Source: an uncultured Alphaproteobacteria bacterium (GTDB taxonomy: Bacteria > Pseudomonadota > Alphaproteobacteria > Rhizobiales > Kaistiaceae). Taken from it: DNA of 32,000 bases. The stretch lies in NCBI GenBank assembly GCA_963785065.1, contig CAWATX010000001.1:93690-125689 (forward strand), read 5' to 3'. Position numbers and translations under genes: made by a program. This document shows, one piece after another, positions 6,642 through 25,762 of the stretch. The notes under the pieces were generated by a model. The model made no database searches. It was not told where the DNA came from and was given only the letters and a program-made list of their open reading frames with translations. Each line of letters opens with the position of its first letter. Within the stretch, counting starts at the first letter, position 1.

Positions 6642-6654
6642 GGCTCACGTCGTG

Positions 6655-9821: not shown

Positions 9822-10123
9822 TGCGCGGCCGGCTCCTCCATCTGCCCGCGATCGCACGCGCCATCGGCTTTGCACTGGTCGCGGTCGCCATGATCGCCGC
9901 CGTGCTGCATTTTCATGCGTCAGCATCGCACATCGCCCCGCATCAGACCGGTTCGTCGGCCGCGGCGGATCAGCTGGCAGCGGAGTTCAAGCGGTGCCAG
10001 CGCATCGCCGAAGAGGCCAATGATGACCCGGCCTGCGAGAAGGCCTGGGCGGAGAACCGCCGCCGCTTCTTCACTTACGCGCCGTCACCTACGCGCGCCC
10101 AACCGAAGACGAACGGCAGGTAG
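9821..10123 (+). CDS. trbK: Small membrane-anchored protein in the trbK position (TrbK-alt-type putative entry exclusion protein).
   Basis: 100 aa with an N-terminal TM segment. The C-terminal part reads CQRIAEEANDDPACEKAWAENRRRFF. TGATG overlap with the trbJ stop, and it lies between trbJ and trbL. Confidence 0.6.
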   Translation: MRGRLLHLPAIARAIGFALVAVAMIAAVLHFHASASHIAPHQTGSSAAADQLAAEFKRCQRIAEEANDDPACEKAWAENRRRFFTYAPSPTRAQPKTNGR

Positions 10124-10128
10124 GCGGC

Positions 10129-11394: not shown

Positions 11395-11397
11395 CTC

Positions 11398-12078: not shown

Positions 12079-13067
12079 TGCGCTCCTTCGCCGTCTCAAC
12101 CCTGCTGCTTGCGTCTCTTTCCCTCGCCGCCTGCGCGACCACCTGGAAGCCGCCGGCGATCAGTTACGACAATCTGCCGAAGCGCGCCACGCTGCTGCCC
12201 GAACCGCCAAAGCCTGTGCGGATCGTCGAACTCCCGAAAGTGTTGCCGTTGCCGGGCCAGCTCAAGCCCCTCCCCGGAAAGTCGAAGCTGCCGCCGGAAT
12301 CGCCCGACCCACATGTGCGCGTCGACAAGGCCAACGGCGCTGCCCGCGTCCAGCCGAAGGGCGCCGATTACCTCAATGCCATCCAGGTCTACCCCTTCGC
12401 CGAGGGTGCGCTGTACCAGGTCTACGCCACCCCTGGAGAGATCACCGATATTGCCCTGCAGCCGGGCGAGCAGCTCGCCGGCTCCGGCCCGGTCGCCGCC
12501 GGTGACACGGTCCGCTGGATCATTGGCGATACGGAGAGCGGCGCAGGCGCCGACAAGCGCATCCACATCCTGGTGAAGCCCACCCGTTCCGATCTCGACA
12601 CCAACCTCGTCATCAACACTGATCGCCGCACCTATCACCTCGAGCTGCATTCCGACGACAAGACCTACATGGCGTCGGTTTCCTGGGCCTACGCCGAAGA
12701 CCAGCTCATTGCACTGCGCCAGCAGAATGCCGCGGCTGATGCCGCCGCGCCGGTCATGAGCGGTGTTGACATCAACGCGCTCAATTTCCGCTACCGCATC
12801 GCGGGTGACAATCCGCCCTGGCGGCCGCTGCGCGCCTTCGACGACGGCCGCCAGGTGTTCATCGAGTTTCCGAGCGGCATCAGCCAAGGCGAGCTACCGC
12901 CGCTCTGGGTGATTGGCGCCGAAGGCGACGGACAGTTGGTCAACTACCGCGTCAAGCAGAATTACATGATCGTCGACCGCTTGTTCGCCGCCGCTGAGCT
13001 CAAGCTCGGCGCCAAGCACCAGCAGGTTGTCCGCATCGTGCGCACCGACGGAAGGCCCCGGTCGTGA
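12078..13067 (+). CDS. trbG: TrbG (VirB9-like) outer-membrane lipoprotein of the T4SS.
   Basis: Lipobox LSLAAC, then YPFAEGALYQVYATPGEITDIALQPGE. TGATG overlap with trbF. Confidence 0.9.
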   Translation: MRSFAVSTLLLASLSLAACATTWKPPAISYDNLPKRATLLPEPPKPVRIVELPKVLPLPGQLKPLPGKSKLPPESPDPHVRVDKANGAARVQPKGADYLNAIQVYPFAEGALYQVYATPGEITDIALQPGEQLAGSGPVAAGDTVRWIIGDTESGAGADKRIHILVKPTRSDLDTNLVINTDRRTYHLELHSDDKTYMASVSWAYAEDQLIALRQQNAAADAAAPVMSGVDINALNFRYRIAGDNPPWRPLRAFDDGRQVFIEFPSGISQGELPPLWVIGAEGDGQLVNYRVKQNYMIVDRLFAAAELKLGAKHQQVVRIVRTDGRPRS

Positions 13068-14227
13068 CGGACGAACCCCGGCAAGAGGAGAGGCCAGGCG
13101 CGGCCGCACGCCCGGCCGAGGAGATGCGCCTTCGCCCGCGGCGCCCGCCAGTAACCCGGCTGTCGCGCAAGGTCCTGCTCGGTCTCGGCGCGGCTGTCGT
13201 GGTCGCAATCGGCGGCATACTGCTGTTCGCGCTGAGGCCGCAGCACCACACCACCGGAACGGAGCTGTTCAACACCAACAACCGCGATACACCGGATGGC
13301 CTGGCAAACCTCCCGCGTGACTATACCGGTCTTCCGAAGCCCGTCCCCAAGCTTGGCCCGCCCCTTCCGGGCGACCTCGGCAAGCCGATCGTCAATGCCG
13401 GTGCCCCGGCGCCTGGCATGTCCGGCCCCGAGGAACAACGCATCGCACAGGAAGTGGAGGCTGCGCGGACGAGTCGCCTGTTCGCAACCACGAATGTCAC
13501 GCCGCCGAGCGCGCCGCCGCCGCCAGCGCAGGAAGCCGCCCCGCCCGCTCCCATCCGGGACGGCTCCTCCGCCAACCCAACCTCACAAGATCACGAGCTC
13601 GCTTTCCTCAACGGCTCCGTCGATCGGCGCACGACCAGCCCCGATCGCATCCAGCCGCCAGCGAGCCCTGCCGTGCTCCAGGCAGGGTCCGTCATTCCGG
13701 CCTCTCTGATCACGGGCCTCCGCTCCGATTTGCCTGGCGAGGTCACCGCTCAGGTGACCGAGGACGTCTATGACAGTCCAACGGGCAAGATCCTCCTGAT
13801 CCCTCAAGGAGCACGCTTGATTGGTCAATACGACGCCCGGGTCACTTTCGGCCAGTCCCGTGCCCTCCTCGTCTGGACTCGCCTCATTATGCCTAACGGC
13901 AAATCGATCGTGCTGGAGCGTCAGCCGGGCGTAGACCCACAAGGCTATGCCGGTCTCGCGGACCAGGTCGACAATCACTGGGGCATGCTGTTCAAGGCTG
14001 CGATCCTCTCGACAATCCTCTCAGTCGGCGCCGAGGCGGGAGCCGGCAACAACGAGAACAACCTCGCCCAAGCGATCCGCCAGGGCGCATCGCAAAGCAT
14101 CAATCAGGCCGGCGAGCGCGTGGTCGGCCGATCGCTCGATATCCAGCCGACCATCACGATTCGGCCGGGCTTCCCGGTGCGCGTCCTGGTCACCCGTGAT
14201 CTCGTACTGGAACCCTACGGCAGATAA
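13064..14227 (+). CDS. trbI: TrbI (VirB10-like) conjugal transfer protein.
   Basis: GTG start overlapping the trbG stop. It has an N-terminal TM, a Pro-rich linker, and a C-terminal VIPASLITGLRSDLPGEVTAQVTEDVYDS... Confidence 0.9.
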   Translation: MTDEPRQEERPGAAARPAEEMRLRPRRPPVTRLSRKVLLGLGAAVVVAIGGILLFALRPQHHTTGTELFNTNNRDTPDGLANLPRDYTGLPKPVPKLGPPLPGDLGKPIVNAGAPAPGMSGPEEQRIAQEVEAARTSRLFATTNVTPPSAPPPPAQEAAPPAPIRDGSSANPTSQDHELAFLNGSVDRRTTSPDRIQPPASPAVLQAGSVIPASLITGLRSDLPGEVTAQVTEDVYDSPTGKILLIPQGARLIGQYDARVTFGQSRALLVWTRLIMPNGKSIVLERQPGVDPQGYAGLADQVDNHWGMLFKAAILSTILSVGAEAGAGNNENNLAQAIRQGASQSINQAGERVVGRSLDIQPTITIRPGFPVRVLVTRDLVLEPYGR

Positions 14228-14246
14228 GGAAGCAAGGAAGCGAAGA

Positions 14247-14507
14247 ATGGCAAAGCTGAAGCTCGGGGCGATTGCCGACGACAAGCCCGTCAAGCTGACG
14301 ATCGAACTGCCAGCCGCTATCCATCGCGACCTTGTCGCCTACGCCAATGTTCTTGGCCGCGAAACGGGTGAGGCCGCGGTCGAGCCGGCGAGGCTGATCG
14401 GACCGATGCTGGCGCGCTTCATGGCGACCGATCGGGCGTTTGCAAGATTGCGACGGACCGGCTCTGCGGGACAGCACTTGCCGTCGAGGAGAGCGCAATC
14501 AGAATAG
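14247..14507 (+). CDS. DUF2274-family small protein that typically terminates ICE-type trb operons.
   Basis: Starts MAKLKLGAIADDKPVKLTIELPAAIHRDLVAYANVL. It lies 20 nt after trbI. Confidence 0.75.
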   Translation: MAKLKLGAIADDKPVKLTIELPAAIHRDLVAYANVLGRETGEAAVEPARLIGPMLARFMATDRAFARLRRTGSAGQHLPSRRAQSE

Positions 14508-15386
14508 TTGGCGTGCGCGCGCCTCGTCGCGCATGAAGGCTACGAACCGTCCAACGGCGGGATCTTCCGCCTCCGAATTCCACGCGAGTTCCACCTGAAC
14601 CCAGGCGTTCTCTTCGCGGATCGGCCGGTAAGCGATGCCCGGAAACGGGACCTCGGACTGGCTTCTGGTGGCAAGCGTGATCCCGAAACCGGCCGCGACC
14701 AATGCAAGGATGCTTTGCTTGCTCGCGGCATGCGCTTCGAACCGAACGCCGGATCCCATGAGCGAGGCGTAGAACTGGCGCGCCGCTTGGCTCTCACCCC
14801 ACCCCTGGACGAGCAGAGTCTCCCTGCGCAGGTCTTCCCACCTGAGCGTCTCCAGCTCCAGCAGTTGATGCTCGCGCGGGATCGCCGCAAGCATTCGCTC
14901 GCGGTAGAGCGGCATCGACGGGGCGTTGGGCCATAGCGTATGGTGCGGCATCAGTGCGACATCGACGCGGCGTTCCTGCACGGTCAACTGTATCTCCGGC
15001 TCGCTCAGTTCCGAGACACTGAGCCTGACGTCCGGGTGGCGCATCCGCCAACTGCAGAGGAGCTCGGCGAGCGGCGCGCCGACCGGCGGCATGCGCACTG
15101 CAAGGCGAATCTCACCAACCATGCCGTTGCCGTTCCGGTCGCTGGCGAGCTTGGCAGCATCGAGTTCCGCCAGCGCCCGGCGGATATGCGGCAGAACCGC
15201 CTTGCCGCCGCTGGTCAGCCGAACGCCTGCATGACCGCGTTCGAACAACGCCAGGCCAAGCTCGTCCTCCAATCGCCCGATCCGGCGGCTGATTGTGGAC
15301 GTGTTGATCCCGAGCGACTTGGCAGCGCGGGTGAAGTTTGAGGCAGTCGCCGACGCCTCAACGTAAACGAGATCGCGGATTTCCAT
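14499..15386 (-). CDS. LysR-family transcriptional regulator.
   Basis: N-terminal HTH NFTRAAKSLGINTSTISRRIGRLEDELGLALFER with a LysR substrate-binding-like C-terminal half. A dyad ATCTC-N9-GAGAT (15387-15405) abuts its start codon. Confidence 0.9.
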   Translation of the reverse strand: MEIRDLVYVEASATASNFTRAAKSLGINTSTISRRIGRLEDELGLALFERGHAGVRLTSGGKAVLPHIRRALAELDAAKLASDRNGNGMVGEIRLAVRMPPVGAPLAELLCSWRMRHPDVRLSVSELSEPEIQLTVQERRVDVALMPHHTLWPNAPSMPLYRERMLAAIPREHQLLELETLRWEDLRRETLLVQGWGESQAARQFYASLMGSGVRFEAHAASKQSILALVAAGFGITLATRSQSEVPFPGIAYRPIREENAWVQVELAWNSEAEDPAVGRFVAFMRDEARARQLF

Positions 15387-15764
15387 ATCTCAATCGCCCG
15401 GAGATCTCACCGTGCGGGCGCGGTGTTGGCTCACGCGTTTGCCAAGCGGCTCGGATGGCGTTGCGTTGCGCCGCCGGGTAGCAAAGACCGACATCCTCCG
15501 CCCGTCGACGCCACCCGCTACCTCGCTGAACCCTTCACGCGCCGAGGACCGTACTCGCTGATGGCGCCGACGATCGGCACCCCAACCTCCCCGTAACGAT
15601 GCCTCATGCGGCGTGGTGCCTGAAGGACGCGGTACCGCAATCACGGCGTCGCTTCGAGGGCGCTGGCGAGATTCGCCTTGCCGCATGGGCCGCATCAGCG
15701 TCATCGTTGTCTCCTGTGCGCTGGCAGCCCCCGACATTAGCAATTGAAAACGCCGCCTGGGACA

Positions 15765-15784
15765 ACCTGTAGAATTACACAGCT
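15765..15784. promoter_or_regulatory. lux-box-like 20-bp element ACCTGTAGAATTACACAGCT.
   Basis: It has the CTG-N10-CAG core. By my count, 15 of 20 positions are identical to the Vibrio fischeri lux box ACCTGTAGGATCGTACAGGT. It lies 2 nt beyond the luxR-family stop codon and faces the 15390-15760 gap and lysR. Confidence 0.5.
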
Positions 15785-15786
15785 TG

Positions 15787-16527
15787 TCAATCGCCAGTCG
15801 TTCGATGTGGCAGGCCGTTGGTCGCGACGAGACGGGCGACAGCCTGGGTTATGTTTCGTGCGCCAAGTTTTTCCTTTGCCTTTTCCAAATGGAAGGCAGC
15901 CGTCCGTTGGGAAACGCCAATTATCTTGCCGATCTCCCAAGTCGACTTGCCTTGGGCGGCCCAGTTAAGGCACTCAATTTGGCGTCGCGACAAGCCGGTG
16001 CTCTCGAACGGCTGTATCGCGCGGGTTCTTCTGCGAGCGTGTGCATGGAAATTGACAGCCAGAAGACGGAGAAGCTGCGCATTCCAATGAATACTCCGAC
16101 AGAATGCAGCACGATTGTCACTGGTTGCGAAGGTAATCACGGCGATGGAGCCGTCGTGCTCGTGAATCGGGATCGTGAAGCCGTATTTGATCCCGAATTG
16201 AGCGGCCTCATCAAAGAGCTGCTGTTCCGGCCTGAGCGCGTCGAGCGGCGCGAAGTCCGGTCCCCATGTGAACGCGCCCGAATGATTGAGGGCGTGACGG
16301 ATGACTGGATCGATGCGCTCGTAGTGGCATGCGGCGTACCGATTGATCCACGCTGCCGGATAATTCGAGATGACATCTGGGCGAAACGTCGACAACCGCG
16401 GCATCGCCAGGTAGGCGAAATTGTTCAAATCAAGTGCATTCGCTGCGTACAGCATCGCCCCGACGAGCGCGGCCTCGCCGTCAGCCTGAAAGAGCATGTC
16501 GACGAAGCCTTGGAACAGGTCGTACAT
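15787..16527 (-). CDS. LuxR-family regulator with an N-terminal autoinducer-binding domain. It is a LuxR solo, since no luxI-type gene is in the window.
   Basis: YPAAWINRYAACHYERIDPV gives W-x3-Y-x8-DP, matching TraR W57/Y61/D70/P71. FTWG and FGIKYGFTIP follow. The C-terminal GerE HTH reads LSRRQIECLNWAAQGKSTWEIGKIIGVSQRTAAFHLEKAKEKLG. Confidence 0.88.
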   Translation of the reverse strand: MYDLFQGFVDMLFQADGEAALVGAMLYAANALDLNNFAYLAMPRLSTFRPDVISNYPAAWINRYAACHYERIDPVIRHALNHSGAFTWGPDFAPLDALRPEQQLFDEAAQFGIKYGFTIPIHEHDGSIAVITFATSDNRAAFCRSIHWNAQLLRLLAVNFHAHARRRTRAIQPFESTGLSRRQIECLNWAAQGKSTWEIGKIIGVSQRTAAFHLEKAKEKLGARNITQAVARLVATNGLPHRTTGD

Positions 16528-17138
16528 CGTGGCTCAATCTCATTGTCGCTGGTCGCCACATCGACACACGCAAAGATGGTATGTGTTGGTCCTGCGGCGT
16601 TAAATCGGCCCCTTTCTTCATTTCTGGTTAACTAAAGCTTATCGGCTGCCGCGGCACAGTCCATCCTTCTATGAGGTTCCTAACCCCGACACGCGCTATG
16701 TGACCCATCTCGTAGTCAGCAGCGTGGCGTGGACGCGAGCGAACTCTTCGACCGGGTCGAAGCAAGCGATTCGATCAATGTCACCCAGCGCGGCGCGCAC
16801 CGGCGCGCTCATGGTGTGATCGGGCGTGAGCAGCACGATTGCGCAGGCCACGCCTCTCGCGAGAATGCCGGATCGCCCCGCACGCTCAATTCTCAGCGCG
16901 TAGATGCATTGAGGGCGTGCGCGGCGGTGGTTGAATTAGCCGACCGCACCGCGGCACGCCCTCATTCGAATAACCCGCCCTGAGCGGCAGGCCATGCAGC
17001 CGGCGATATGCTTGCCGGCCTGGTGGGCTCCGAACGGGTTCGCCGCCATTCCCACCACCGCGCTCGATCCGCCCCACGGTGCGGCGTCTCCCGCGGTCCC
17101 CGCGCTTATCGGGTCCGGGTCCCCATCGACAGCTCCTC

Positions 17139-18041
17139 TCACGCGGCTGTCGATTCCAATTCTGCAATTCGCTGAAACTCGGTCAGGAATTCCTGGTGGT
17201 TCTGAGCGAGGTACCGCACGACCCGCGCGTTGGCGAGGAGCTTTGCCAAGTATCCTTTGGTAAGAACGAGATCGAGATGGTCGCTGCCATACGATTGCTC
17301 GGCCATCTTGAACTCGCGATCGAGGTTGGCCAACTCGCGTTCCATGAGGGCCATCTGATCGTCGGTGAGGCCGTTCACGGTCTTCCGCTTTTGCGCGTCG
17401 GCCAATTGCGAATGCGGGGTCGCGGCGTAGAGCGATTTGGCATAGTTGATCGTGTACTTGTTCATCGCGACCATCAGCTCAGCGGCTTCGATCTGTCGAA
17501 GCGGCGCCATCTTTCTGAGTTCCGTGAAAGAATTGATCGGGACGTGCTTGTCCTTGAGGATCTCAGCGGCCTCCGGGCAGATCCCTGCGAGGAGGCGACG
17601 CTTCTTGCGAATTTCGGCGACGTTGACGTTCAACGCTCTGGCGATCCGTTCCTCCGAGACGCCCTTTTCGACCGCCTTCAGAATCATCTTGTGTTCCTGA
17701 ACGATCGCGATGCGGCTGACCCGGCGATTGTAGGTGAAGGCTTCGTCATCGGTCGAAACCAAGCAAGCGACCTCGGTCTCACCTAGGTCCTTCAGGACCT
17801 CGACGCGGAGATGGCCGTCGAGGAGGAGGTACTTGCCCGCCTCGCTCCGGTCTCGTGCAACGACCGGCGGCTCGATGATACCTACCTCGCGGATCGATGC
17901 GGCTATCTGCGCGAACTTCGGGGTCTTCTTAATGGTCGCGGTGACGGCACGGAGCGGTTGAAGATCGGCGATCAGTATCCTTACGCCGACTTGTTCGAAC
18001 GCCATCTTCACCGGACCGGTGGACGCCTTGCGAGCCATCAT
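17139..18041 (-). CDS. ParB/Srx-fold N-terminal domain protein with a long helical RepB-C-like C-terminal half (ParB paralogue 2).
   Basis: 300 aa, containing IADLQPLR...GIIEPPVVARD...YLLLDGHLRVEVLKDLG, HTH EERIARALNVNVAEIRKKRRL, then a helical C-terminus. Its ATG overlaps the stop of the upstream gene (ATGA at 18038-18041). Confidence 0.75.
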   Translation of the reverse strand: MMARKASTGPVKMAFEQVGVRILIADLQPLRAVTATIKKTPKFAQIAASIREVGIIEPPVVARDRSEAGKYLLLDGHLRVEVLKDLGETEVACLVSTDDEAFTYNRRVSRIAIVQEHKMILKAVEKGVSEERIARALNVNVAEIRKKRRLLAGICPEAAEILKDKHVPINSFTELRKMAPLRQIEAAELMVAMNKYTINYAKSLYAATPHSQLADAQKRKTVNGLTDDQMALMERELANLDREFKMAEQSYGSDHLDLVLTKGYLAKLLANARVVRYLAQNHQEFLTEFQRIAELESTAA

Positions 18042-18928
18042 TGCGTCTCCGAAGACACTTCGAAGCGGGCTGCCAGGTTGCGGGGAAGAGTGTCGAGATG
18101 CTCCGCCCTGAGCAGCGTCACGAAGTTCTCGTCCCTCAGGAGCTTGCGCAGCGCTTCGGTCGCGAAGATCAGCCGATCCCTCGTTGCCTCCGCTTTGCGG
18201 ATCAGGTGCCGCTTCTTGTCCGTATCCTGGCGATAAGCACGGATAAGGGAGTCCGACGACACGTTATCCTGTTGCTTTGGCCCGTTTGTGCGAAGTCCCT
18301 TGCCGCGTCGTCGACGCTGCTCGATCACGCGTTTGGCGATCATGAGCTTACGGCCCCTGAGCTCCTTCTTTTCGTAGGCCTGCTGAAGCGCGCGCTGAAC
18401 ACCCGAGTCATCGGCCTCGGCGATCTCGACGGCGACGCTGACCGGGAGATGGCCGGATTCGACGGCACGGAGGAGGCGGTGTTCGCCCTTTTCCAGGAGC
18501 CGGATCACTCCTCGGACGTACTCCGCTGACAAGTCGGTCTTCTGCGCAATCTCCAACTCGCGGTATCCGCGGCGCTTCAAGCCTTCGATGTCGTGGAGCA
18601 GGTCGATAGCGCGATGCTGTCGGCGCGCACAGTTTTCGACAAGGCTCATCACCAGGCAATCGTCGGTATCTGCCTCGACCACCAGAGCGGGGATTTCTAG
18701 CTGCCCAAGCAGCCGATAGGCCTCGAGCCTGCCTTGACCACAGACGAGGTCGTAGCGCGGGCCATCGGTCCGCTCACGTTTCGTCACTGTGATCGGCTTC
18801 TTCAGGCCCAGTTCGGCGATATTCCCAACAATCTCCTTAAAAAGACGGGAGTTTCGCAGGCGCGGATTGACGACATCGACCTGATCGACCGGAATCAACT
18901 CGACGGCTGGAACAGCCAAAGCTTTCAT
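18038..18928 (-). CDS. ParB-like N-terminal domain / HTH protein (ParB paralogue 1).
   Basis: 296 aa, containing LIPVDQVDVVNPRLRN...LGLKKPITV...YDLVCGQGRLEAYRLLG...LVENCARR, HTH LEIAQKTDLSAEYVRGVIRLLEKG, and a basic tail. Its ATG overlaps the recombinase TGA (TGATG at 18926-18930). Confidence 0.75.
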   Translation of the reverse strand: MKALAVPAVELIPVDQVDVVNPRLRNSRLFKEIVGNIAELGLKKPITVTKRERTDGPRYDLVCGQGRLEAYRLLGQLEIPALVVEADTDDCLVMSLVENCARRQHRAIDLLHDIEGLKRRGYRELEIAQKTDLSAEYVRGVIRLLEKGEHRLLRAVESGHLPVSVAVEIAEADDSGVQRALQQAYEKKELRGRKLMIAKRVIEQRRRRGKGLRTNGPKQQDNVSSDSLIRAYRQDTDKKRHLIRKAEATRDRLIFATEALRKLLRDENFVTLLRAEHLDTLPRNLAARFEVSSETQ

Positions 18929-20532
18929 CAGGCAGCCTCGCTCAGCTTCACGCGCGCCCCCATGCTGTAGAGCGGATCGAGTGTCTCGAAACGGTAGGCG
19001 TCGAGCGATAAGCCGTTGTGCTCGGCGAGCCGAAGACGCGCGACCGTCATGTCAATCCGCGGCAGGATGTAGTAGTCGAGCGGGATGCTGTTTGGCCGGT
19101 CCATACGAAGCACAACCGTCACATCGGGCTGCAGACTGGTGTCGAAGCGGACAGTCCATCGAAGCGAGCCGGTCGCCAGCTCCAGGCAACGGGCAATGAC
19201 AATCGAGGCGGTGAATTCGCGATTGATGGTCAGGAGGTCCGTGTCCGGGTCCCTGTCGACCTGACCGCCAACCTTCTCGATCTGGGCGACGGTCTCAGCC
19301 ATCACGCCGGGATGCAGTTCGCGAAGAGCTCGATTGATCTCGATGTAACGGTAATCGCGGTCCGGCGTGAACCCGACCAGCTGATAGGCCCGGAGCAAGC
19401 TGCCATATCGACTTTGGTACGAGCTGCTCGACGGAAGGTGCTCGCTCTCGTCGATGATGAGCCCGGAGAGGTAGCCGTGTCGATCAAGGAGTCCGCGAAG
19501 CCCCTCCAACATCTCCGCGTCGGAAAATCTCCGTGATCGCTCCCGAATGATTGTCTGAGCAGCATCGAATAGCTCCTGATCGACGATGCGCTCGAAAGCG
19601 CCTTCAGCCCGAATCCACATTTCCGGACCGTTCCGTATGCGCTTCTTCTTCAGCTTGAATGAGACACGGTTCCAAAGGTTGTTGCCGACATATTTCTCGT
19701 TGATCAGCACCTGATGCACGGTTCCGCGCGTCCAGGGGCGGCCGAGATCCGTCATGATGCCGCGACCGTTCAACTCGTCGGCGATTTCCTTCTCAGCCTT
19801 CTGGTCTACGACAAAGCGTCGATAGATTGATCGGACGCTGTCGACCTCGTCCTCCGGCCCAAGCGCGAGGATCACGCGGTCGGTTTGGATACTCTTGTGC
19901 TCACCCTGATTCAGGTCGCCCTTGACGTTGCCGCCTTGATCGATCAGGCGGCGGCGAAGGCCGTATCCAGGTGCGCCGCCCTGCCGGAAGCCCAGTTCAA
20001 TCAGGCGACACTGGCCGGCGAATACTTTTGCCGAAAGTTCGCGGCTGTACTCACCGGCCATCGCGCGCTTGACGCCTTTGACGATCGTCGAGACCGGGCT
20101 GCCATCATTCTCGAATTGTTCAGCGCAATAGTGAACGGTGACCCCGGCGCGCTTGCAGATGTATTCGTAGTAGGCGCTCTCATCGGCATCCTGGAAGCGG
20201 CCCCACCGGCTGACGTCGTAGACTAGAATCGCGGTGAAGTCCGCCGTTCCACTCTCCACATCCTTGATAAGTTGTTTGAGTGCGTCTCGCCCATCGAGCC
20301 GGAGACCGCTTCGACCCTCGTCGGCGTAGGTGCGCACGATCTCAATCGAGCGCTGATGCGCGTATCGCCGGAGTGCCGCAGATTGGTTTTCGGTCGAGTA
20401 TTGCTGGTGCTCGGTCGACATGCGGACGTACTCGGCCGCCCGCACCGATGTCGGGGTGCTTCGTTCGCCTGTCGCGTTCCAATCGGTCACCTTGGGGCAA
20501 TCCACTGACGGCCCGGCGCCGGTCAGACGCAT
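18928..20532 (-). CDS. Large serine recombinase (resolvase catalytic domain, recombinase domain, and a long C-terminal extension).
   Basis: AAEYVRMSTEHQQYSTENQ...YADEGRSGLRLDGRDALKQLI...LVYDVSRWGR is the resolvase-type catalytic region, with the nucleophile Ser in RMST. I see no Cys-pair zinc ribbon in the C-terminal 250 aa. An alternative internal GTG start, giving MRAAEYVRMST, is possible. Confidence 0.85.
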   Translation of the reverse strand: MRLTGAGPSVDCPKVTDWNATGERSTPTSVRAAEYVRMSTEHQQYSTENQSAALRRYAHQRSIEIVRTYADEGRSGLRLDGRDALKQLIKDVESGTADFTAILVYDVSRWGRFQDADESAYYEYICKRAGVTVHYCAEQFENDGSPVSTIVKGVKRAMAGEYSRELSAKVFAGQCRLIELGFRQGGAPGYGLRRRLIDQGGNVKGDLNQGEHKSIQTDRVILALGPEDEVDSVRSIYRRFVVDQKAEKEIADELNGRGIMTDLGRPWTRGTVHQVLINEKYVGNNLWNRVSFKLKKKRIRNGPEMWIRAEGAFERIVDQELFDAAQTIIRERSRRFSDAEMLEGLRGLLDRHGYLSGLIIDESEHLPSSSSYQSRYGSLLRAYQLVGFTPDRDYRYIEINRALRELHPGVMAETVAQIEKVGGQVDRDPDTDLLTINREFTASIVIARCLELATGSLRWTVRFDTSLQPDVTVVLRMDRPNSIPLDYYILPRIDMTVARLRLAEHNGLSLDAYRFETLDPLYSMGARVKLSEAA

Positions 20533-20578
20533 GGCACATGTCGGAAATCCGAGGGGGGAAGTGTCATCTTCCTACCCT

Positions 20579-20608
20579 CTCTGCATCGACGTCACTGTAG
20601 ATGCAGAG
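20579..20608. promoter_or_regulatory. Perfect 9-bp inverted repeat in the divergent recombinase/HTH control region.
   Basis: CTCTGCATC (20579-20587), a 12-nt spacer, then GATGCAGAG (20600-20608). It sits between the recombinase start (20532) and the HTH gene. Confidence 0.45.
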
Positions 20609-20618
20609 TGGTGGAAAC

Positions 20619-20978
20619 ATGTTGCCGAAAACGGGCAAGAGTTTGCCGAAAGGGTCGCGCCGCAAACAAACCGGACTAGACTTCAACAAGAGGATCGCCG
20701 CGGCGCTACGTGCCGAACTCGGTTCCACGCACCAGGCAGTCAAGACGGTGATGCGCTGGACCGGCGCCAGCGAGCGCACGGTCAAGAACTGGCTCGACGG
20801 AACCCACGGACCGAGCGGAGATCATGTCGTCGTCCTGATCCGCCATTCCGACGAGGTCTTGAAGGCGCTGCTCGCAATGGCGGGCCGCGATTCTGCGCTC
20901 GTTTCGGTGGACATCATCGATATTCGAGAAAAGCTTCTGGAGACCGTTCAGTTCATTGACGAGCAAATAGATCGCTGA
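20619..20978 (+). CDS. Small HTH-type DNA-binding protein of unknown function, divergent from the serine recombinase.
   Basis: MLPKTGKSLPKGSRRKQTGLDFNKRIAAALRAELGSTHQAVKTVMRWTGASERTVKNWLDG contains an HTH-like segment. The alternative ATG at 20601 lies inside the inverted repeat. Confidence 0.55.
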   Translation: MLPKTGKSLPKGSRRKQTGLDFNKRIAAALRAELGSTHQAVKTVMRWTGASERTVKNWLDGTHGPSGDHVVVLIRHSDEVLKALLAMAGRDSALVSVDIIDIREKLLETVQFIDEQIDR

Positions 20979-20982
20979 GTTC

Positions 20983-21906
20983 TCACGTGACCGTATTCCA
21001 TGGACCGCCCGGAGCCCACTTCATCGAGAAATCACCGCCGGCAAGAATCGCCGCCGTTGGCGGCATGACGAACGCGGCGATCTCATCGATCGTCGCTGGC
21101 AGACTACGAGGCTCAACAAGCAAGGGCGTCCGGCCCACGAACGCTGTCCATTGCTCATTCTTCTGCCGATCCGAGGAGAACGCTTGTCCGAGCGCGATCG
21201 GTAGTTCGGCGGGGATCGGTGTCTGGCGACGATCGAAGGTCGCCCGGATCGCGGCAGCCACGGAATACCCATCGAAAGCAAACAATCGGCCGAGTGCGAG
21301 AAGATCGTAGAAGTCTTTCATCCGGCTGTTGGCGAGCCCCAGCTCGACGATCGCCTGAAACTTCTCGGCGACGACCGTCTCCCGAGGATACGCCCGAAGG
21401 TGTGGGCCTCTTGCATCAAGAAGTGCGGGGAACTCGATGTCGGTTGCGGCCGGGGTGATTGCGTCGCCAAAACCGATATCGATCTGGATCGGGATACGCG
21501 TCTTTCCCAGGAAGGCCCTACTGCGAATGCGAACACCACGATATTGCTGATCGTCGCGGATCGGCTCCACGATGACGTCGTCGGCGTCGAAAACCAGCCC
21601 ATCGTCGGCGACCTCTTGTCCGCAAATTGCTCGATACGTGGTGGCGATCGTTTCGATGGCGGGGTCACCGAAACCCATCAGGTCGAGATCCTGCGTGGGC
21701 CGGAATGGATCATCGAGCCATGCCGTGAAAAGCATTGCGCCTTTGAGGACGAAGCGATCGCGAAAGGGCGACAAACTCAGGCGGTGGAGAAGCCGTTCGA
21801 TCGCATAGCGTCGCAGGATGAACTCGAGGCTGGAATTCTTGTCTCGGGCAATGTTGCGCAGTCGCGCTGCGACGGACGCCGGGAGATTGGTCGGCTTATC
21901 CTTCAT
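20983..21906 (-). CDS. abiEii: AbiEii/AbiGii-family nucleotidyltransferase toxin (type IV TA / abortive infection).
   Basis: MKDKPTNLPASVAARLRNIARDKN...FVLKGAMLF...PTQDLDLMGF...IPIQIDIGFGD. The start at 21906 overlaps the abiEi stop by 11 nt. The longer ORF-track N-terminus (to 22038) is Arg/His-rich and unlikely to be real. Confidence 0.85.
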   Translation of the reverse strand: MKDKPTNLPASVAARLRNIARDKNSSLEFILRRYAIERLLHRLSLSPFRDRFVLKGAMLFTAWLDDPFRPTQDLDLMGFGDPAIETIATTYRAICGQEVADDGLVFDADDVIVEPIRDDQQYRGVRIRSRAFLGKTRIPIQIDIGFGDAITPAATDIEFPALLDARGPHLRAYPRETVVAEKFQAIVELGLANSRMKDFYDLLALGRLFAFDGYSVAAAIRATFDRRQTPIPAELPIALGQAFSSDRQKNEQWTAFVGRTPLLVEPRSLPATIDEIAAFVMPPTAAILAGGDFSMKWAPGGPWNTVT

Positions 21907-22522
21907 CCGCCGCGAGGCTTTCAAGGTAGGGGCGAATGACCGTCCCGATCCGCAGGTTGCCAGCGTGGCGGGAGATTTCGTCGGGTGACGTCTTGCGGGA
22001 CCGAAGTGCCATGCGGAGTGCTTCGAGTGCCACGTCAAGACCTACCGTCTTTCGGTACCGGAAGCAGTCGACGACCGTTCTTGCCGGATCGGTGATCCTC
22101 ACTTTCACGGAATCAATGATGTGCGTATCGATTCCGTCGGCAAGGGCGCGCTCGCCGAACCGGACGAATCGAACCGGCGGATAGCTGATGCTTGGCTTCC
22201 GGTCTCTCTCCCCAATTGCCACCCACACGCTACTGGCGTTCTGCAGCGTGATCTCGTGGAACTGCAGTGCAGAAATCAGGCAGATCACCCCCTTTGGGAC
22301 CCGCTTCGCGATTTCGGCCAGCCCATGGGAGAGATGGAACTCGGCATCGGCGAGTTCATAAAGGCCGCGGGAGGGGCGGACGATGGCGCCCTCGTTGACG
22401 AGGCGTGAAAGGGTCGGGGGATCGACGCCTTGCGCCACAAGGTCCGAGAGCCGCATGATTCCGTTGCGCTCAAGAAGGCGGAGCGCGGTCTTCCGCTGAC
22501 TTGGGACTGCGGGTTCGGCCAT
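21896..22522 (-). CDS. abiEi: AbiEi-family antitoxin / transcriptional regulator.
   Basis: The N-terminal winged HTH reads LLERNGIMRLSDLVAQGVDPPTLSRLVNEGAIVRPSRGLYEL. The C-terminal domain contains ICLISALQFHEIT. It lies directly upstream of abiEii and overlaps it. Confidence 0.85.
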   Translation of the reverse strand: MAEPAVPSQRKTALRLLERNGIMRLSDLVAQGVDPPTLSRLVNEGAIVRPSRGLYELADAEFHLSHGLAEIAKRVPKGVICLISALQFHEITLQNASSVWVAIGERDRKPSISYPPVRFVRFGERALADGIDTHIIDSVKVRITDPARTVVDCFRYRKTVGLDVALEALRMALRSRKTSPDEISRHAGNLRIGTVIRPYLESLAADEG

Positions 22523-22570
22523 GTTACAAAACGTCGTGTCCTAGCGCTGATTCCCGACGTTCTGTAACAT
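22521..22570. promoter_or_regulatory. Inverted repeat at the abiEi start (candidate AbiEi autoregulatory operator).
   Basis: ATGTTACAAAACGTC (22521-22535) and GACGTTCTGTAACAT (22556-22570) are complementary at 14 of 15 positions, with a 20-nt spacer. The left arm touches the abiEi start codon. Confidence 0.5.
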
Positions 22571-22925
22571 ACCTTCCTACCAAACGGGAGCCACGTCTCA
22601 CGTCTACAAGCCGCTTCGGCCCTGGCAGGAGGTCGAGGTCAAGATCGTCAGCGCCAGCCAGGTCGGTGAGGGCGGCGAGGAGAAAGGCCCGGGGGCGTGC
22701 ACCATCCGAGCTTCGGGAACTTGGCACCCATCCCTTTCGTGCGCCGCGATAACTTCTTCTACGATCTGGCCGTTCAGCTTCTTTCGGGCGCTGTCGCTAA
22801 CCCGCATCATACGTGGTCACCCACACGGGTGGACGGAATTCGAGCCCTCATTGCCGGCAGCCCACGTATTGATCCTCGCCATGCCACGTCCTGCCATAAT
22901 TCCTGCGGGTTCTTGGCCGCGCCGT

Positions 22926-23111
22926 ATGTCAGCCGCAATAGCAGCGGGATATTGCGGAGAGCCGACTGTCGAAGCATTCTTGAAGCGCGTTGGCAGTGAA
23001 TATCCTCGGCCACGGATCAAAGAAGGTAGACGGCAGCTATGGTTGCGAGACGATCTGGACCGGGCCATCGCACCGGAAATCGTGCCGGGCGACCTCGCCG
23101 AGGATTTGTGA
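22926..23111 (+). CDS. Small excisionase / AlpA-like HTH protein (putative Xis).
   Basis: MSAAIAAGYCGEPTVEAFLKRVGSEYPRPRIKEGRRQLWLRDDLDRAI resembles the MerR-superfamily excisionase pattern. Its TGA overlaps the integrase ATG (TGATG at 23109-23113). An earlier start at 22881 is possible. Confidence 0.5.
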   Translation: MSAAIAAGYCGEPTVEAFLKRVGSEYPRPRIKEGRRQLWLRDDLDRAIAPEIVPGDLAEDL

Positions 23112-24454
23112 TGCTGGAACGCCCGCGCTTCATAGAAGTGCGGAGGCTCGCCGACGGCTCGGTCGCGTTCTATTTCCGCGTACCGACATATTATCGCAAG
23201 CTCGGGTGCGAAATTTCCAACGAGCCGTTGGGCACCAACTACGAAGCTGCCTGCGGCGAAAGCGGCAAAGGTGGGCGGGCGGCCACGCTCAATGCCCTGT
23301 TCGATGAATGGAACGGCCAACGCAAGGGCGAGCCCGTCAATCAGGCGCAGATCGCCCGCTATGGCACGATTGATTGGCTGTTCAGGCAATACAAGGCTGA
23401 GAAGGCTTACACGGAGAAAGTCTCGCCACGCTCGCGCCCTGACTACGAGCATATCATGCAGATGATATGTGACACCGTCGGCAAGAGTGGTCGGCGCATC
23501 GGCGAGCGGCTGATCGCAGAGGTTACGCCGCGGGCCGCTGACAAGATCTACGAGAAGATCATCAACGGCCCCAACGGTCTCAGGCTGCGGCAGGGCGAAA
23601 AGGTGGTCGGGCTCTGCCGCAAGGTCTGGCGGATCATGCGCAGGCTGCATCCTGAGCTGTTTGACAAGAAGCACCCCAACCCATGGGATGACTTCACGCT
23701 CAAGAGCCGCACCAAGAGCAAGAAGCACGCTGTGACACGCGAAGAGGTCTACAAATTCGCGTGGGGTTGCATCGCGCAAGGCCGGCCCGAACCGGCGGCA
23801 GTGGCGGTGATCTGCTTTGAGTGGCTGCAGCGCCCCGAGAACGTGGTGGCGGGCTTGCTCACCTGGCCGGACTACCGCGGCAAGAAATGGCCGCATGCCG
23901 TGCGCATCGAGCATCACAAGAACAAAACATTGGTCTGGCATCCGCTCGAGGAGACCGTCGATGGCGAGACCGTCAGGTTCTACGCCGAGGCCGAGGACGT
24001 CCTGAGCCATCTGCCCAGGCTCGGCGTTCCGATGATCATGCGCAAAATCGAGAGGGGGGAGAGCAAGGGCACCGCCAAGGTTTGGTCCTATCCCGGCATG
24101 GAGAAACTCGTGCAGACGTTGCGCAAGAAGGTCGAGGGGGTGTCGGAGCTATTCACACTCGATGCCTGCCGGCACGGCGGCATGACCGAGCTGGAGGAGG
24201 CGGAGCTGACCGAGGGTCAGGGCCGCGCCCTGTCCGGACACAAGACCGCGCAGGCCTACCGCGGCTATGCCAAGGAGACGATGCAACGCGCACTGGCGGC
24301 AACCCGCAAACGGCATGCGCACCTGCTGACGCAAAAGCAGCTGGAAGAACAAATCAGCACAGAGTTTCCAAATGGCGGCCAGAATGAATTTCCAAATGGG
24401 ACACAAAACCAGCGCGAGAACAAACCGGTTTCTGTAACGAATTCAGGGTGTTGA
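23111..24454 (+). CDS. int: Tyrosine recombinase / phage-type integrase.
   Basis: Candidate catalytic residues: R in EWLQRPENV, HHKNK, ACRHGGMTE (H-x-x-R), SGHK, and the Tyr in AYRGYAK. The stop codon at 24452-24454 lies 3 nt from the tRNA-Gln 3-prime end. Confidence 0.88.
   Translation: MLERPRFIEVRRLADGSVAFYFRVPTYYRKLGCEISNEPLGTNYEAACGESGKGGRAATLNALFDEWNGQRKGEPVNQAQIARYGTIDWLFRQYKAEKAYTEKVSPRSRPDYEHIMQMICDTVGKSGRRIGERLIAEVTPRAADKIYEKIINGPNGLRLRQGEKVVGLCRKVWRIMRRLHPELFDKKHPNPWDDFTLKSRTKSKKHAVTREEVYKFAWGCIAQGRPEPAAVAVICFEWLQRPENVVAGLLTWPDYRGKKWPHAVRIEHHKNKTLVWHPLEETVDGETVRFYAEAEDVLSHLPRLGVPMIMRKIERGESKGTAKVWSYPGMEKLVQTLRKKVEGVSELFTLDACRHGGMTELEEAELTEGQGRALSGHKTAQAYRGYAKETMQRALAATRKRHAHLLTQKQLEEQISTEFPNGGQNEFPNGTQNQRENKPVSVTNSGC
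24362..24399 (+). repeat. Tandem direct repeat (24-bp period) at the integrase 3-prime end, GAGTTTCCAAATGG / GAATTTCCAAATGG. These are candidate arm-type recombinase binding sites.
   Basis: Copies lie at 24362-24375 and 24386-24399, matching 13 of 14 in the core and 17 of 24 over a full period. They encode EFPNGGQN/EFPNGTQN in the Int tail, 60-95 bp from the tRNA junction. Confidence 0.45.
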
Positions 24455-24457
24455 GGC

Positions 24458-24532
24458 TGGCTGGGGCGGGAGGAATCGAACCTCCGAATGGCGGAATCAA
24501 AATCCGCTGCCTTACCTCTTGGCTACGCCCCA
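24458..24532 (-). tRNA. tRNA-Gln (anticodon UUG), CCA encoded.
   Basis: The reverse complement is TGGGGCGTAGCCAAGAGGTAAGGCAGCGGATTTTGATTCCGCCATTCGGAGGTTCGATTCCTCCCGCCCCAGCCA. It has a 7-bp acceptor stem, anticodon loop TTTTGAT and a TTCGATT T-loop, and closely resembles E. coli tRNA-Gln. Confidence 0.93.
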
Positions 24533-24686
24533 AAAAGAGCAACCGGCCCGGCAGGTTTCCGTCCGTGGCTCCGTATATAGGCTGGGCCACGCCCCCGCAA
24601 CGCGGGCGAGCCCGCATGCAAATCGCCGTCCGCTGCGGCCTTGCCGCCCCCCGACGGCGACGTTATAAGTCCGCTCCGCCAGGAAC

Positions 24687-24763
24687 CGGAGTGTAGCGCA
24701 GCCTGGTAGCGCACCTGCTTCGGGAGCAGGGGGTCGCAGGTTCGAATCCTGCCACTCCGACCA
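24687..24763 (+). tRNA. tRNA-Pro (anticodon CGG), CCA encoded.
   Basis: CGGAGTGTAGCGCAGCCTGGTAGCGCACCTGCTTCGGGAGCAGGGGGTCGCAGGTTCGAATCCTGCCACTCCGACCA. The anticodon stem is CCTGC/GCAGG and the loop is TTCGGGA. Confidence 0.93.
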
Positions 24764-24847
24764 CCCTTCGCCCGCGGGCAGCCCGTTGAGCCAAGGTGAC
24801 GTCATGTACCGGTTCCGCGCTTGGTCCATCGTGCTTCGCTAGCGCCG

Positions 24848-25762
24848 ATGGCCGAGCTTATCTTCGACCGCGATTTCGATCCCCAATATGGGCGCGCCGT
24901 GCCGGTGGCGCCGGGCGTGCGCCGGGTCACGGCGGCAAATGCCGGCCCCCTCACCTTTGCCGGCACCAACAGCTACATCCTCGGCTCTGGCCGGGTCGCC
25001 ATCATCGACCCCGGCCCCGACGACGAAGCCCACTTCCACGCACTGATGGCGGCGACGGCGGGCGAGACGGTGACCCACATCCTGCTCACCCACACCCACC
25101 GCGACCATTGCGCCGGCGCGGCGCGGCTGGCAGCAGCCACCGGGGCGCCGCGCTATGCCGGCAGGCGCCAGGGCGCCGCGGCGGAAAGCGCGCCCGGGGT
25201 GGACACCGGCATCGATGAGGATTTCGTGCCGGACCAAGTGCTCTCCGACGGGGCGCTGATTGCCGGCGACGACTGGCAGGTGGACGCGATTGCCACGCCC
25301 GGTCATGCCAGCGATCACTTCGTCTTCGCGCTGGCCGGAAGCGATCTCATCTTGTCCGGCGACCACGTCATGGCCTGGTCGACAACCGTGGTGGCGCCGC
25401 CGGAAGGTTCGATGGCGGCCTATATCGCCTCGCTCGATCGGCTGCTGGCGCTCAGCCAGGACACCTATCTGCCCGGCCATGGCGGGCCGGTCGTGCAAGC
25501 GCATGTCTATGTCCGCGCGCTGAAAGCCCATCGGCGAGAGCGCGAAGCGGCGATCCTGGCTTCGCTTGCTGCCGGGGCCGAGACCGTTCCGGCGATCGTC
25601 GCCGGGGTCTATGCGAACCTTGACCCGCGGCTTGCCGGCGCTGCCGGCCTCTCGGTGCTGGCCCATCTGGAAGACCTGATCGCGCGCGGCCGTGTCACTT
25701 CTGACCGCCCGCCGGGATCGGCGGCGCGCTTCCGACTCAGTTACTGCTCGCCGGACTGCTGA
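24848..25762 (+). CDS. MBL-fold metallo-hydrolase.
   Basis: HILLTHTHRDH matches the HxHxDH motif. ATPGHASDH and LPGHG follow. Confidence 0.85.
   Translation: MAELIFDRDFDPQYGRAVPVAPGVRRVTAANAGPLTFAGTNSYILGSGRVAIIDPGPDDEAHFHALMAATAGETVTHILLTHTHRDHCAGAARLAAATGAPRYAGRRQGAAAESAPGVDTGIDEDFVPDQVLSDGALIAGDDWQVDAIATPGHASDHFVFALAGSDLILSGDHVMAWSTTVVAPPEGSMAAYIASLDRLLALSQDTYLPGHGGPVVQAHVYVRALKAHRREREAAILASLAAGAETVPAIVAGVYANLDPRLAGAAGLSVLAHLEDLIARGRVTSDRPPGSAARFRLSYCSPDC

Follow-up and report, generated by a model that had tools for sequence, protein, structure and literature searches.

Large serine recombinases such as TnpX of Tn4451, TndX of Tn5397, CcrAB and CcrC of SCCmec and the integrases of Bxb1, PhiC31 and SPbeta (SprA) join a catalytic serine domain to a Recombinase domain and act in compact elements that occupy many unrelated sites, features shared by the locus described here. 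On the conjugative element RK2/RP4, a three-gene multimer-resolution operon, parCBA, lies divergent from parDE; in RP4 the protein called ParA is a small resolvase and the one called ParB a nuclease with a different fold, and KorB works with IncC, a ParA protein. The present locus is likewise a three-gene recombinase operon near a toxin–antitoxin (TA) pair. It lies in a stretch of 32,000 nucleotides (nt; the window) from an uncultured alphaproteobacterium of the Kaistiaceae (assembly GCA_963785065.1, contig CAWATX010000001.1, positions 93,690 to 125,689), and forms a cassette of ~4.1 kb with five parts: a small divergent gene, a control region, a serine recombinase gene (SR), a pair of genes for ParB-like proteins (ParB-A and ParB-B) and a structured RNA at the 3' end. 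Comparison of its copies points to movement between hosts and replicons as a unit.

A six-frame list of open reading frames (ORFs) places SR at 18928-20532 (534 aa), ParB-A at 18038-18928 (296 aa) and ParB-B at 17139-18041 (300 aa), all on the minus strand. From these coordinates, SR and ParB-A overlap by 1 nt in TGATG (18926-18930) and ParB-A and ParB-B by 4 nt in ATGA (18038-18041), in exact agreement with a preliminary description, made from the sequence alone, that had reported three coupled minus-strand genes with overlapping stop and start codons. Gene junctions of -4 to +3 nt occur in homologous loci too, indicating that tight coupling recurs. The same description had set the limits of the module at 17139-20978. 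The genes are as it gave them; the module, however, reaches ~140-190 nt farther, through a non-coding element at 16999-17153, and the most distinctive component, the conserved structured RNA directly 3' of ParB-B, had been overlooked.

Conservation was assessed in 69 loci (designated by L numbers) from contigs representing one genome per species, about 60 of which had flanks long enough to be informative. The small gene, SR, ParB-A and ParB-B are all present and in order in ~55 of these 60; the trio and its divergent partner are thus inherited together as a genuine unit, in line with the module proposed before. The hosts are mostly Alphaproteobacteria (Rhodobacterales, Sphingomonadales, Hyphomicrobiales and Rhodospirillales), with one Enterobacter at 33-43% identity. 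The same gene order is found on plasmids of Sphingobium, Marinibacterium and Pseudorhodobacter, on pAt of Agrobacterium C58 and in most loci from a viral collection; the settings thus comprise plasmids, integrative and conjugative elements (ICEs), prophage borders and chromosomes. At least 8,000 relatives of SR were returned by protein search, and ParB-B has at least 5,929 significant relatives, the best 120 of which are all at least 71% identical.

The surroundings of these copies have little in common. Across ~60 loci, 117 ORFs on the small-gene side gave 108 Pfam families, with Fic (7), tyrosine integrase (5) and ArdC (3) the most frequent, and the neighbourhoods include sugar transporters, a tyrosine integrase with a SNF2/DUF1156/DUF499 set, SIR2, terminase-like genes, amidohydrolases, virB genes, and ssb with DUF2493. 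No ParA or Rep family occurs near the trio in the window or among the Pfam families listed for the 117 neighbouring ORFs, no RepA or RepC lies beside any copy examined, and no parS-like palindrome array was identified. Since the flanks are unrelated and ParA and Rep are absent nearby, the locus is not a partition or repABC locus, as the preliminary description had held; that description had also allowed that the genes might prove not to be a unit, or always to lie beside parA or repA-repC, and the loci examined showed neither.

Comparison of all loci against one another places the end of similarity near the gene ends. The window is 90-91% identical to L012, L013 and L014 over 16949-21042 and unrelated beyond, the right-hand 60 bp of this block being the end of AbiEii, of which L012 retains the final 19 codons as a remnant. 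In a clade of sphingomonad loci that carry no RNA element, DNA is unrelated directly past the ParB-B stop and the small-gene stop in at least eight contexts, while the last codons can still be aligned. In the Rhodobacterales, the shared block includes ~150 bp past the small gene, with three direct repeats of TTGCCATT (or TTTCCTTT), and ~280 bp past ParB-B, with a second long hairpin. On the megaplasmids of Sinorhizobium meliloti, each replicon has between two and four ParB-B-like places, of which many are split or lack a listed gene, which suggests repeated acquisition and decay. With flanks that are unrelated, neighbours that are diverse and several places per S. meliloti replicon, a reading of mobility is supported, and boundaries so precise and so recurrent speak for a cassette that moves as a discrete piece, though they do not reveal the mechanism. 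Judged from these sequence comparisons, the cassette moves horizontally as a unit into the accessory regions of ICEs and plasmids, beside prophages and into chromosomes.

The RNA element is conserved to a very high degree. A megablast of the region against plasmids matched only ~115 nt directly downstream of ParB-B, at ~89% identity, where ParB-B itself is 47-53% identical; likewise, the element is 83-95% identical between loci whose ParB-B proteins are ~45-75% identical. It sits 10-60 nt past the ParB-B stop in most loci. Comparative analysis defines a core of ~125 nt, from 17125 to 16999 on the minus (operon) strand, with helices P1 (17119-17116/17102-17099), P2 (17096-17092/17062-17058), which encloses P2a (17088-17087/17067-17066) and P2b (17084-17081/17072-17069), and P3 (17056-17051/17027-17022), which encloses P3b (17046-17043/17037-17034), followed by a terminal hairpin of variable sequence, P4 (17019-17014/17004-16999). 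Beyond P4 a tail of the conserved block, 16949-16998, extends to the edge of similarity to the closest copy in another context. Directly 5' of the core, an 8-bp hairpin or inverted repeat, P0 (TCGACAGC ... GCTGTCGA, 17153-17146/17133-17126, same strand), was read by eye across the ParB-B stop; hairpins of different sequence at the P0 position were also read by eye in L008, L012, L016, L019, L022, L023 and L031.

A consensus fold computed by RNAalifold from a first alignment of 46 distinct copies contains 30 pairs, with 96.3% of cells paired and 12 compensatory (double-change) pairs; none of 500 shuffles reached the observed values on all five measures, and only 35-46% of cells were paired when partners were slid by 1-3 columns. 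P2 is kept as CCGCG/CGCGG, CCACA/UGUGG and CCAUG/CAUGG, and P3 as GGUGGG/CCCACC, GAUGGG/CCCAUC and GGCGGG/CCCGCC. A second set of 48 distinct copies from the viral collection and other loci, aligned by fitting to a covariance model, gave 98.4% paired cells and 13 double-change pairs, again with 0 of 500 shuffles, and contributed further compensatory changes, in P2b and in each of the five P4 pairs; copies from the viral collection and the metagenomes had been retrieved by an exact conserved pattern in P1, at the 5' end, and the sequences are related by descent. Within the window, the covariance model detects one copy, at 155 bits. Cells with G-U pairs exceed those with A-C pairs (~84 against ~18, read on the operon strand), and the folded strand is therefore taken to be the sense strand of the operon. 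That the element is a structured RNA with compensatory helices is thus well supported by comparative sequence evidence, its transcript being predicted. A small ORF in its place was rejected because of a frame-breaking indel between close relatives and changes that are not concentrated at third positions. Rfam 15 gave nothing at E<=1 over 15500-24900 except two tRNAs, and with lax filters over 16960-17150 (191 nt) only a chance 12.5-bit match to a miRNA (E=9). Single-sequence folding was uninformative (z-scores 0.3 and 1.2); the structure emerged from the comparison of copies only.

Linkage of the RNA to the trio is close. Among pooled distinct copies, 169 of the 189 that could be judged lie directly behind ParB-B and 20 are unlinked, with nine more left unassigned. 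Metagenome contigs searched for the RNA first yielded at least 120 loci; 100 of the 114 determinable ones have ParB-B (41-80% identical to the window protein) within 200 nt upstream on the same strand, 14 have none (one of these, L209, has a ParB-B C-terminus upstream) and six were not judgeable. The viral collection has 48 contigs with the motif, most of which, where there is enough upstream DNA, carry ParB-B and the trio; six do not. In the other direction, the covariance model found no RNA copy in the whole sphingomonad trio subclade and in a few other loci, where the downstream DNA is unrelated between loci. The RNA is a regular but not universal component of the cassette.

SR has a Resolvase domain (1.4e-23, 84 bits) and a Recombinase domain (PF07508; 3.5e-23, 82 bits) by Pfam. 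Its nucleophile is Ser39 in VRMSTEHQ, and S39, R82 and other residues are invariant among 39 homologues; with a catalytic domain bearing the nucleophilic serine and a Recombinase domain, it is a large serine recombinase. A small resolvase or invertase of the Tn3, gamma-delta or Hin type was considered and set aside, given the length of 534 aa, the Recombinase domain and scores far under the cut-offs of NCBIfam invertase and resolvase models. NCBIfam also gave partial, far sub-threshold matches to CcrB and CcrC, and sequence matches in the PDB are to TP901-1, TnpX and SPbeta SprA. An AlphaFold2 model built on the 39-sequence alignment (mean predicted local confidence, pLDDT, 65) has the SPbeta, Bxb1 and PhiC31 integrases as its top Foldseek matches, by way of the N-terminal domains. 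Residues ~335-495 are modeled, at moderate confidence, as a helical bundle and a beta-sheet, and for the C-terminal ~200 aa a whole-chain Foldseek search gave no specific match. The absence of a zinc ribbon noted previously is upheld: Pfam finds no Zn_ribbon_recom match, and residues 334-534, the last 200 aa, contain a single cysteine. A survey of Paracoccus prophages described a cluster of 11 prophage serine recombinases whose sites of integration could not be established (PMC6536676); these may be the same genes as SR.

Pfam recognizes ParB_N (5e-8) and RepB/PF07506 (3e-18) in ParB-A, and in ParB-B RepB/PF07506 (6e-47), with ParB_N at 1.2e-3, under the Pfam cut-off. PDB sequence matches of ParB-A are to Spo0J (4.5e-10), ParB, Noc and KorB, and those of ParB-B, to ParB/Noc/KorB-type structures, span the N-terminal domain and the helix-turn-helix (HTH). 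The ParB fold of ParB-B is supported by its AlphaFold2 model (pLDDT 68), for which the top Foldseek matches are the cytidine triphosphate (CTP)-bound clamps Myxococcus xanthus ParB, KorB and Noc (E 6e-8 to 1e-5). Pfam, the alignments and the ParB-B model together give both paralogues a ParB N-terminal fold followed by an HTH; the statement that each carries an HTH of its own holds as far as the PF07506 match suggests it and, in ParB-B, the likeness of fold to ParB, KorB and Noc. Alignment to Spo0J and Noc puts GQGR (ParB-A) and GHLR (ParB-B) at the canonical GERR position, confirming the non-canonical GxxR boxes reported before. At the ENLQRE box, ParB-A has ENCARR, which retains ENxxRR, and ParB-B has YNRRVS, with YNRR replacing ENLQR; by motif inspection, ParB-A keeps E-N and the final Arg of the GxxR box, and ParB-B lacks the Glu. 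Because ParB-B has lost the catalytic Glu kept in ParB-A, and because the two are translationally coupled, it is suggested that they might form an asymmetric heteromer.

Partition models fit neither protein. ParB-A scores 53.3 bits and ParB-B 20.9 bits with TIGR00180 (cut-off 58.45), only ParB-B is matched by TIGR03454, the repABC RepB model, at 21.9 bits against a cut-off of 201.5, and the NCBIfam matches of the pair, to ParB/Noc, plasmid ParB and RepB models, are all partial and far sub-threshold. Database names for the pair include 'plasmid partitioning protein RepB C-terminal domain-containing protein'.

The small gene was taken earlier to encode a divergent 120-aa HTH protein. The divergent gene is real, and homologues of 36-81% identity lie divergently upstream of SR in most loci; the protein, a putative regulator, is 119 aa (20619-20978, plus strand), and domain searches do not support the HTH label. 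The mechanical ORF begins at 20601, but homologues have a conserved MFPK/MLPK start with a Shine-Dalgarno sequence, the window protein begins MLPK, and 119 aa is the length of the genes called in L012 and L139, so that the ATG at 20619 is most likely, on sequence grounds, the start. Pfam, NCBIfam and PDB sequences gave no match to the small protein, which leaves 'HTH' as a guess; a faint DeoR HTH match appears in only some homologues.

Between the small gene and SR, the control region (20533-20647) contains the perfect 9-bp inverted repeat reported previously, which was found in the sequence as CTCTGCATC at 20579-20587 and GATGCAGAG at 20600-20608. A -10-like TACAGT (minus strand, 20599 to 20594) lies in its spacer, and homologues have a TAnAAT-like hexamer in the same place on the operon strand. 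Two 14-bp near-palindromes, GGAAACATGTTGCC (20613-20626) and GGCAAGAGTTTGCC (20634-20647), are 21 bp apart, the first centered on the start codon of the small gene; a palindrome GG(A/C)AAC-AT-GTT(T/G/A)CC occupies this start codon in 39 of 60 loci. We infer that these are operators overlapping a divergent pair of promoters, the promoters themselves being assigned by position and likeness since a consensus sigma-70 scan of the control region found none.

Full-length RNA copies also occur away from the trio. The six solitary copies of the viral collection (L093:3768-3922, L096:4219-4372, L111:2087-2241, L118:6710-6864, L119:928-1082 and L123:4412-4567) and several from metagenomes score 110-139 bits. 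They lie precisely where host-like genes meet the tail-fibre end of a single prophage family; similarity among these prophages starts at the first base of the motif (L093 position 3787), and the same family follows the RNA in the trio-bearing L112, L113 and L117. A solitary-RNA prophage locus and a complete cassette coexist in the genome of one isolate (L122/L123). Some solitary RNAs share ~100 nt upstream (L233 ~800-897, L239, L242 and L245), with two TGCAAC-NN-GTTGCC palindromes that resemble the cassette operator; in L233, the first palindrome, when read by eye on its reverse strand, gives an ORF of 12 codons starting MLP, like the small gene. These copies fit three readings, namely a tRNA-like insertion target, an attachment (att) site between the ParB-B stop and the RNA, and phage capture. 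The idea that trio and RNA are opposite ends of a larger element, whose attP would separate the ParB-B stop from the RNA, agrees with the prophage junctions that have only the RNA; it was dropped since it is unsupported in the clade of sphingomonads, whose DNA past the small gene also diverges at once. Cultured phage genomes gave no RNA match and a single ParB-B relative. The only phage record with the trio is L140 (MT837206.1), an unverified 7.4-kb human-faecal 'bacteriophage' scaffold, in which a 282-aa ORF starts within 5 nt of ParB-B, where the RNA would be; another distant trio is in L141 (NZ_CP110863.1), a 13.5-kb plasmid record assigned to Lactiplantibacillus (L. plantarum). The ParB-B proteins of both fall in the range of 44-48% identity. 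One metagenome contig, L259, has two RNA motifs (2018-2142 and 2175-2299) in inverted, convergent orientation ~30 nt apart.

Other insertions adjoin the RNA as well. Similarity of the window to L008, a Bauldia contig in which a tyrosine integrase and a defence-like island follow directly after the RNA, ends at 17014; such an integrase was rejected as a general right-hand neighbour, as it stands directly after the RNA in this one contig only. The window matches L139 at 94.6% over 17019-22592, which takes in AbiE and the cassette, and in L139 an IS481-family transposase gene (13514-14551) lies ~80 nt past the end of similarity, at the P3/P4 boundary (window 17019). In seven Rhodobacterales loci TniQ genes, each with a second, conserved gene after it, are found 0.6-1.2 kb downstream of ParB-B, directed towards the cassette; the TniQ/TniB-type transposon genes are at L063:11443-14271, L064:11436-14287, L070:11702-14595 and L075:11610-13520. 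Tn5053 and its TniQ-type relatives hunt res sites occupied by resolvase, and this placement may reflect res-hunting or insertion directed by an attachment site. In the Sphingobium plasmids L001 and L002, the RNA is followed by DUF2493, a hypothetical gene and ssb, a set of the plasmid leading or establishment type, with a McrBC/AAA pair or a GIY-YIG gene near.

The left-end repeats of the Rhodobacterales number three to four in L058, L064, L066, L068 and L070 (~40-160 bp past the small-gene stop) and in L063, L075 and L076, with TTGCCATT in one subclade and TTTCCTTT in another, and the block opens TGTGGATTG. They may be iterons bound by a protein. Tn7-like ends were rejected for this group, since the TTGCCATT repeats are at the left end only and no inverted partner cluster was found within 10 kb. 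A 21-nt direct repeat in the window, at the 5' end of the RNA (17110-17130) and inside SR (19240-19260), was considered as a pair of recombination sites and discarded as it is absent from all other lineages.

In the window, the cassette borders an AbiEii (4e-44)/AbiEi pair (20983-22522, minus strand), confirmed by Pfam; it is a separate system, of the type IV TA or abortive infection kind, linked physically to the cassette in this lineage. AbiE beside the cassette recurs in pAt of Agrobacterium C58 and in L139 and is absent from most other loci; the defence slot near an integrase envisaged by the preliminary description is a fair account of the window, with the recurrence in pAt, while contexts elsewhere are very varied. 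In the pAt locus (L142, Agrobacterium fabrum C58, 39240-46200) the cassette corresponds to ATU_RS24135-24150, with DUF6088/AbiEii on the small-gene side and a convergent Fic gene after ParB-B; no plasmid match to the RNA is listed for this record. Genes of a Trb-type type IV secretion system (TrbE, TrbL, TrbG/CagX and TrbI) occupy 6580-14227, and between these and the cassette lie a LysR regulator (14499-15386) and a LuxR-type, TraR-like regulator with an autoinducer-binding domain and GerE (15787-16527), suggesting an ICE under quorum-sensing control. Genes for tRNA-Gln(ttg) (24458-24532, minus strand) and tRNA-Pro(cgg) (24687-24763, plus strand) stand side by side. The integrase said to adjoin the tRNAs was not borne out, the 471-aa ORF at 23039-24454 having no Pfam match at E<=0.001; its C-terminus reads ...CRHGG...SGHKTAQAYRGY..., reminiscent of tyrosine recombinase motifs.

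The reading we tentatively favour is that of a serine-recombinase cassette, self-contained and moving as one block, in which the ParB pair and the RNA act as cofactors. Under such a scheme the small protein, the ParB proteins or both would repress the operon through the palindromes over the promoter and the small-gene start codon. SR, once expressed, would excise and integrate the cassette, or resolve DNA that carries it; ParB-A and ParB-B would form a hetero-oligomeric, nucleotide-gated DNA clamp on cassette DNA that controls or targets SR, and the RNA, co-transcribed as the 3' end of the operon, would be a protein-bound cofactor or a regulator of the complex. The recombination junction would fall near the outer stop codons on both sides, within the short stretch that separates the end of ParB-B from the RNA. 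Among the roles put forward earlier, that of a self-contained mobilizable cassette gains most, through the flanks that diverge at the outer stops in at least eight contexts, but no att sites, empty sites or junctions accompany it. Several observations weigh against this reading. A whole trio clade has no RNA, so the RNA is not essential to the core activity of the proteins. A repeat search found no terminal inverted or direct repeats connecting the two cassette ends; the loci compared yielded no att sites, target duplications, empty sites or circle junctions, and the ends are without obvious dyad symmetry. The unit of transfer varies, AbiE travelling along in the window lineage and in C58 and the Rhodobacterales carrying extra DNA at the ends. 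SR has no zinc-ribbon/coiled-coil domain, by which known large serine integrases recognize att sites and control directionality, a simple consensus scan for sigma-70 promoters and terminators had no match in the control region or after the RNA, and the structure models are of moderate confidence (pLDDT 65-68). Precise boundaries with variable flanks are, moreover, also seen typically in defence operons carried as cargo.

The cassette could instead be a maintenance module of its host element, in which SR resolves multimers of the plasmid or excised ICE at a site in the cassette, the ParB pair compacts, positions or regulates the element in the absence of a dedicated ParA, and the adjacent TA system adds post-segregational killing, in functional likeness to the parCBA-parDE region of RK2/RP4 and to KorA/KorB. 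We regard this as somewhat unlikely. Its frequency on conjugative plasmids and ICEs, the TA and abortive infection genes that often abut the divergent side (AbiE, ParDE, PIN/VapC and Fic), the structural proximity of ParB-B to ParB, KorB and Noc, and, in several loci of the Rhodobacterales, TniQ-type transposon genes at a distance of a few hundred bp downstream all speak for such a role, but SR is of the large integrase/transposase type, unlike small resolvases with their C-terminal HTH, no array of repeated half-sites of the res kind was found, and many chromosomal copies have no recognizable plasmid or ICE functions near; multiple decayed copies per replicon and boundaries precise to the stop codon are more in keeping with a selfish element. 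A defence or exclusion system with an RNA component, whose proteins act on incoming DNA and whose RNA is a cofactor, guide or antidote, the prophage RNAs then serving as decoys or for immunity, is unlikely in our estimation. AbiE stands beside the cassette in three lineages, SIR2, McrBC/AAA and SNF2+DUF1156+DUF499 sets adjoin it, and defence cargo typically has such cassette-like boundaries and hypervariable surroundings; the complete solitary RNAs at prophage borders, some with an upstream region bearing two operator-like palindromes, and the isolate that combines an RNA-only prophage locus with a full cassette are also in keeping with it. However, SR, ParB-A and the small protein have no match in PADLOC-DB v2 (5,027 models, including candidate systems), ParB-B matches only a methyltransferase model, partially and at 16.9 bits, by way of its ParB-like N-terminal domain, and no nuclease, NADase, pore or other recognizable effector domain is present; the RNA is nearly invariant, with no obvious variable guide segment, and is missing from an entire clade of trios. 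As the RNA is absent from cultured phage genomes, in which a single ParB-B relative was found, a decoy role rests on prophage predictions.

A variant with an essential RNA, in which the proteins are an RNA-dependent machine that manipulates DNA, the invariant RNA being obligatory, as scaffold, activator or specificity element, for a complex of SR and a ParB heterodimer clamp and the promoter-plus-RNA copies of prophages exploiting or disarming cassettes, seems to us quite doubtful. The 3' element might alternatively act as DNA, as an att or res site of SR or a folded single-strand site and insertion hot spot, with the covariation produced by co-evolving half-sites. Breakpoints do cluster at its edges (the prophage similarity that begins at its 5' end, the P3/P4 junction of L139 followed by IS481, and the integrase island of L008), the P0 inverted repeat spans the ParB-B stop, and loci without the RNA break exactly at that stop. 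Nested helices with arms 25-30 nt apart are, on the other hand, unlike the half-sites bound by a dimer, the helices are of unrelated sequence with no repeated half-site consensus, and pairing is kept through G-U intermediates on one strand only, which makes a purely DNA-level role improbable; the roles are not exclusive, for tRNA and tmRNA genes are both RNAs and att sites. That the locus is a degenerate parAB or repABC remnant lying by chance beside a resolvase is suggested by RepB-type database names and weak matches to partition models, but those matches are far under their cut-offs, ParA, RepA and RepC are missing near every locus examined, and a gene order strictly kept, codons that overlap and strong purifying selection over thousands of copies make it extremely improbable.

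A search of the full-text literature returned no description of the trio, of a PF07506 cassette, of an RNA-guided serine recombinase, of a ParB protein with an RNA or of the RNA sequence, in agreement with the earlier statement that no function had been described for the trio. The cassette is nonetheless abundant, and rides elements that spread traits in Alphaproteobacteria, including the megaplasmids of rhizobia and agrobacteria and the elements of marine Rhodobacterales. The pipeline label of 'plasmid partitioning protein' is contradicted by the partition tests. If the cassette is self-mobile, it would bring a new accessory logic, a ParB pair and an RNA, to a class of recombinases widely used in genome engineering; if the RNA is a cofactor, serine recombinases or ParB-family proteins would for the first time have an RNA partner on record. 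The RNA motif alone is a well-supported, unclassified structured RNA with ~200 distinct examples that marks a recurrent junction with prophages and other insertions.

Set against the elements of other large serine recombinases, the cassette has an SR with a different C-terminus of ~200 aa, free of zinc ribbon and coiled coil, whose translation is always coupled to that of two ParB-fold proteins and which a structured RNA usually follows; no att sites were identified for it. KorA/KorB resemble it in pairing a clamp-like ParB-fold protein with a small DNA-binding protein outside a classical partition role, but KorB acts with a ParA where the cassette has none, and the cassette has two ParB paralogues, a large recombinase and an RNA. 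With repABC and ParABS systems it shares the ParB N-terminal fold with an HTH and the PF07506 'RepB' name, and it differs in having no ParA, RepA or RepC, in its non-canonical GxxR boxes and in scores under the TIGR03454 and TIGR00180 cut-offs. The bridge RNA of IS110, the seekRNA of IS1111 and the omega RNA of IS607/IS605 TnpB are likewise structured RNAs at the end of a recombinase element and conserved together with it; their enzymes, however, are DEDD recombinases or TnpB nucleases in place of a large serine recombinase, and their RNAs have variable guide loops, whereas the cassette RNA is nearly invariant apart from compensatory changes, and base-pairing with DNA finds no support in it. 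As a structured RNA gene whose 3' side is repeatedly a junction with prophages, an integrase island, an insertion sequence and transposon genes, it recalls the tRNA and tmRNA genes used as integration targets, but it is neither of these (ARAGORN, Rfam), is itself part of a mobile cassette, and no duplicated att cores were found. The families to which the components belong are known; their combination, with the missing zinc ribbon, a ParB pair that has no ParA, and the RNA, is undescribed.

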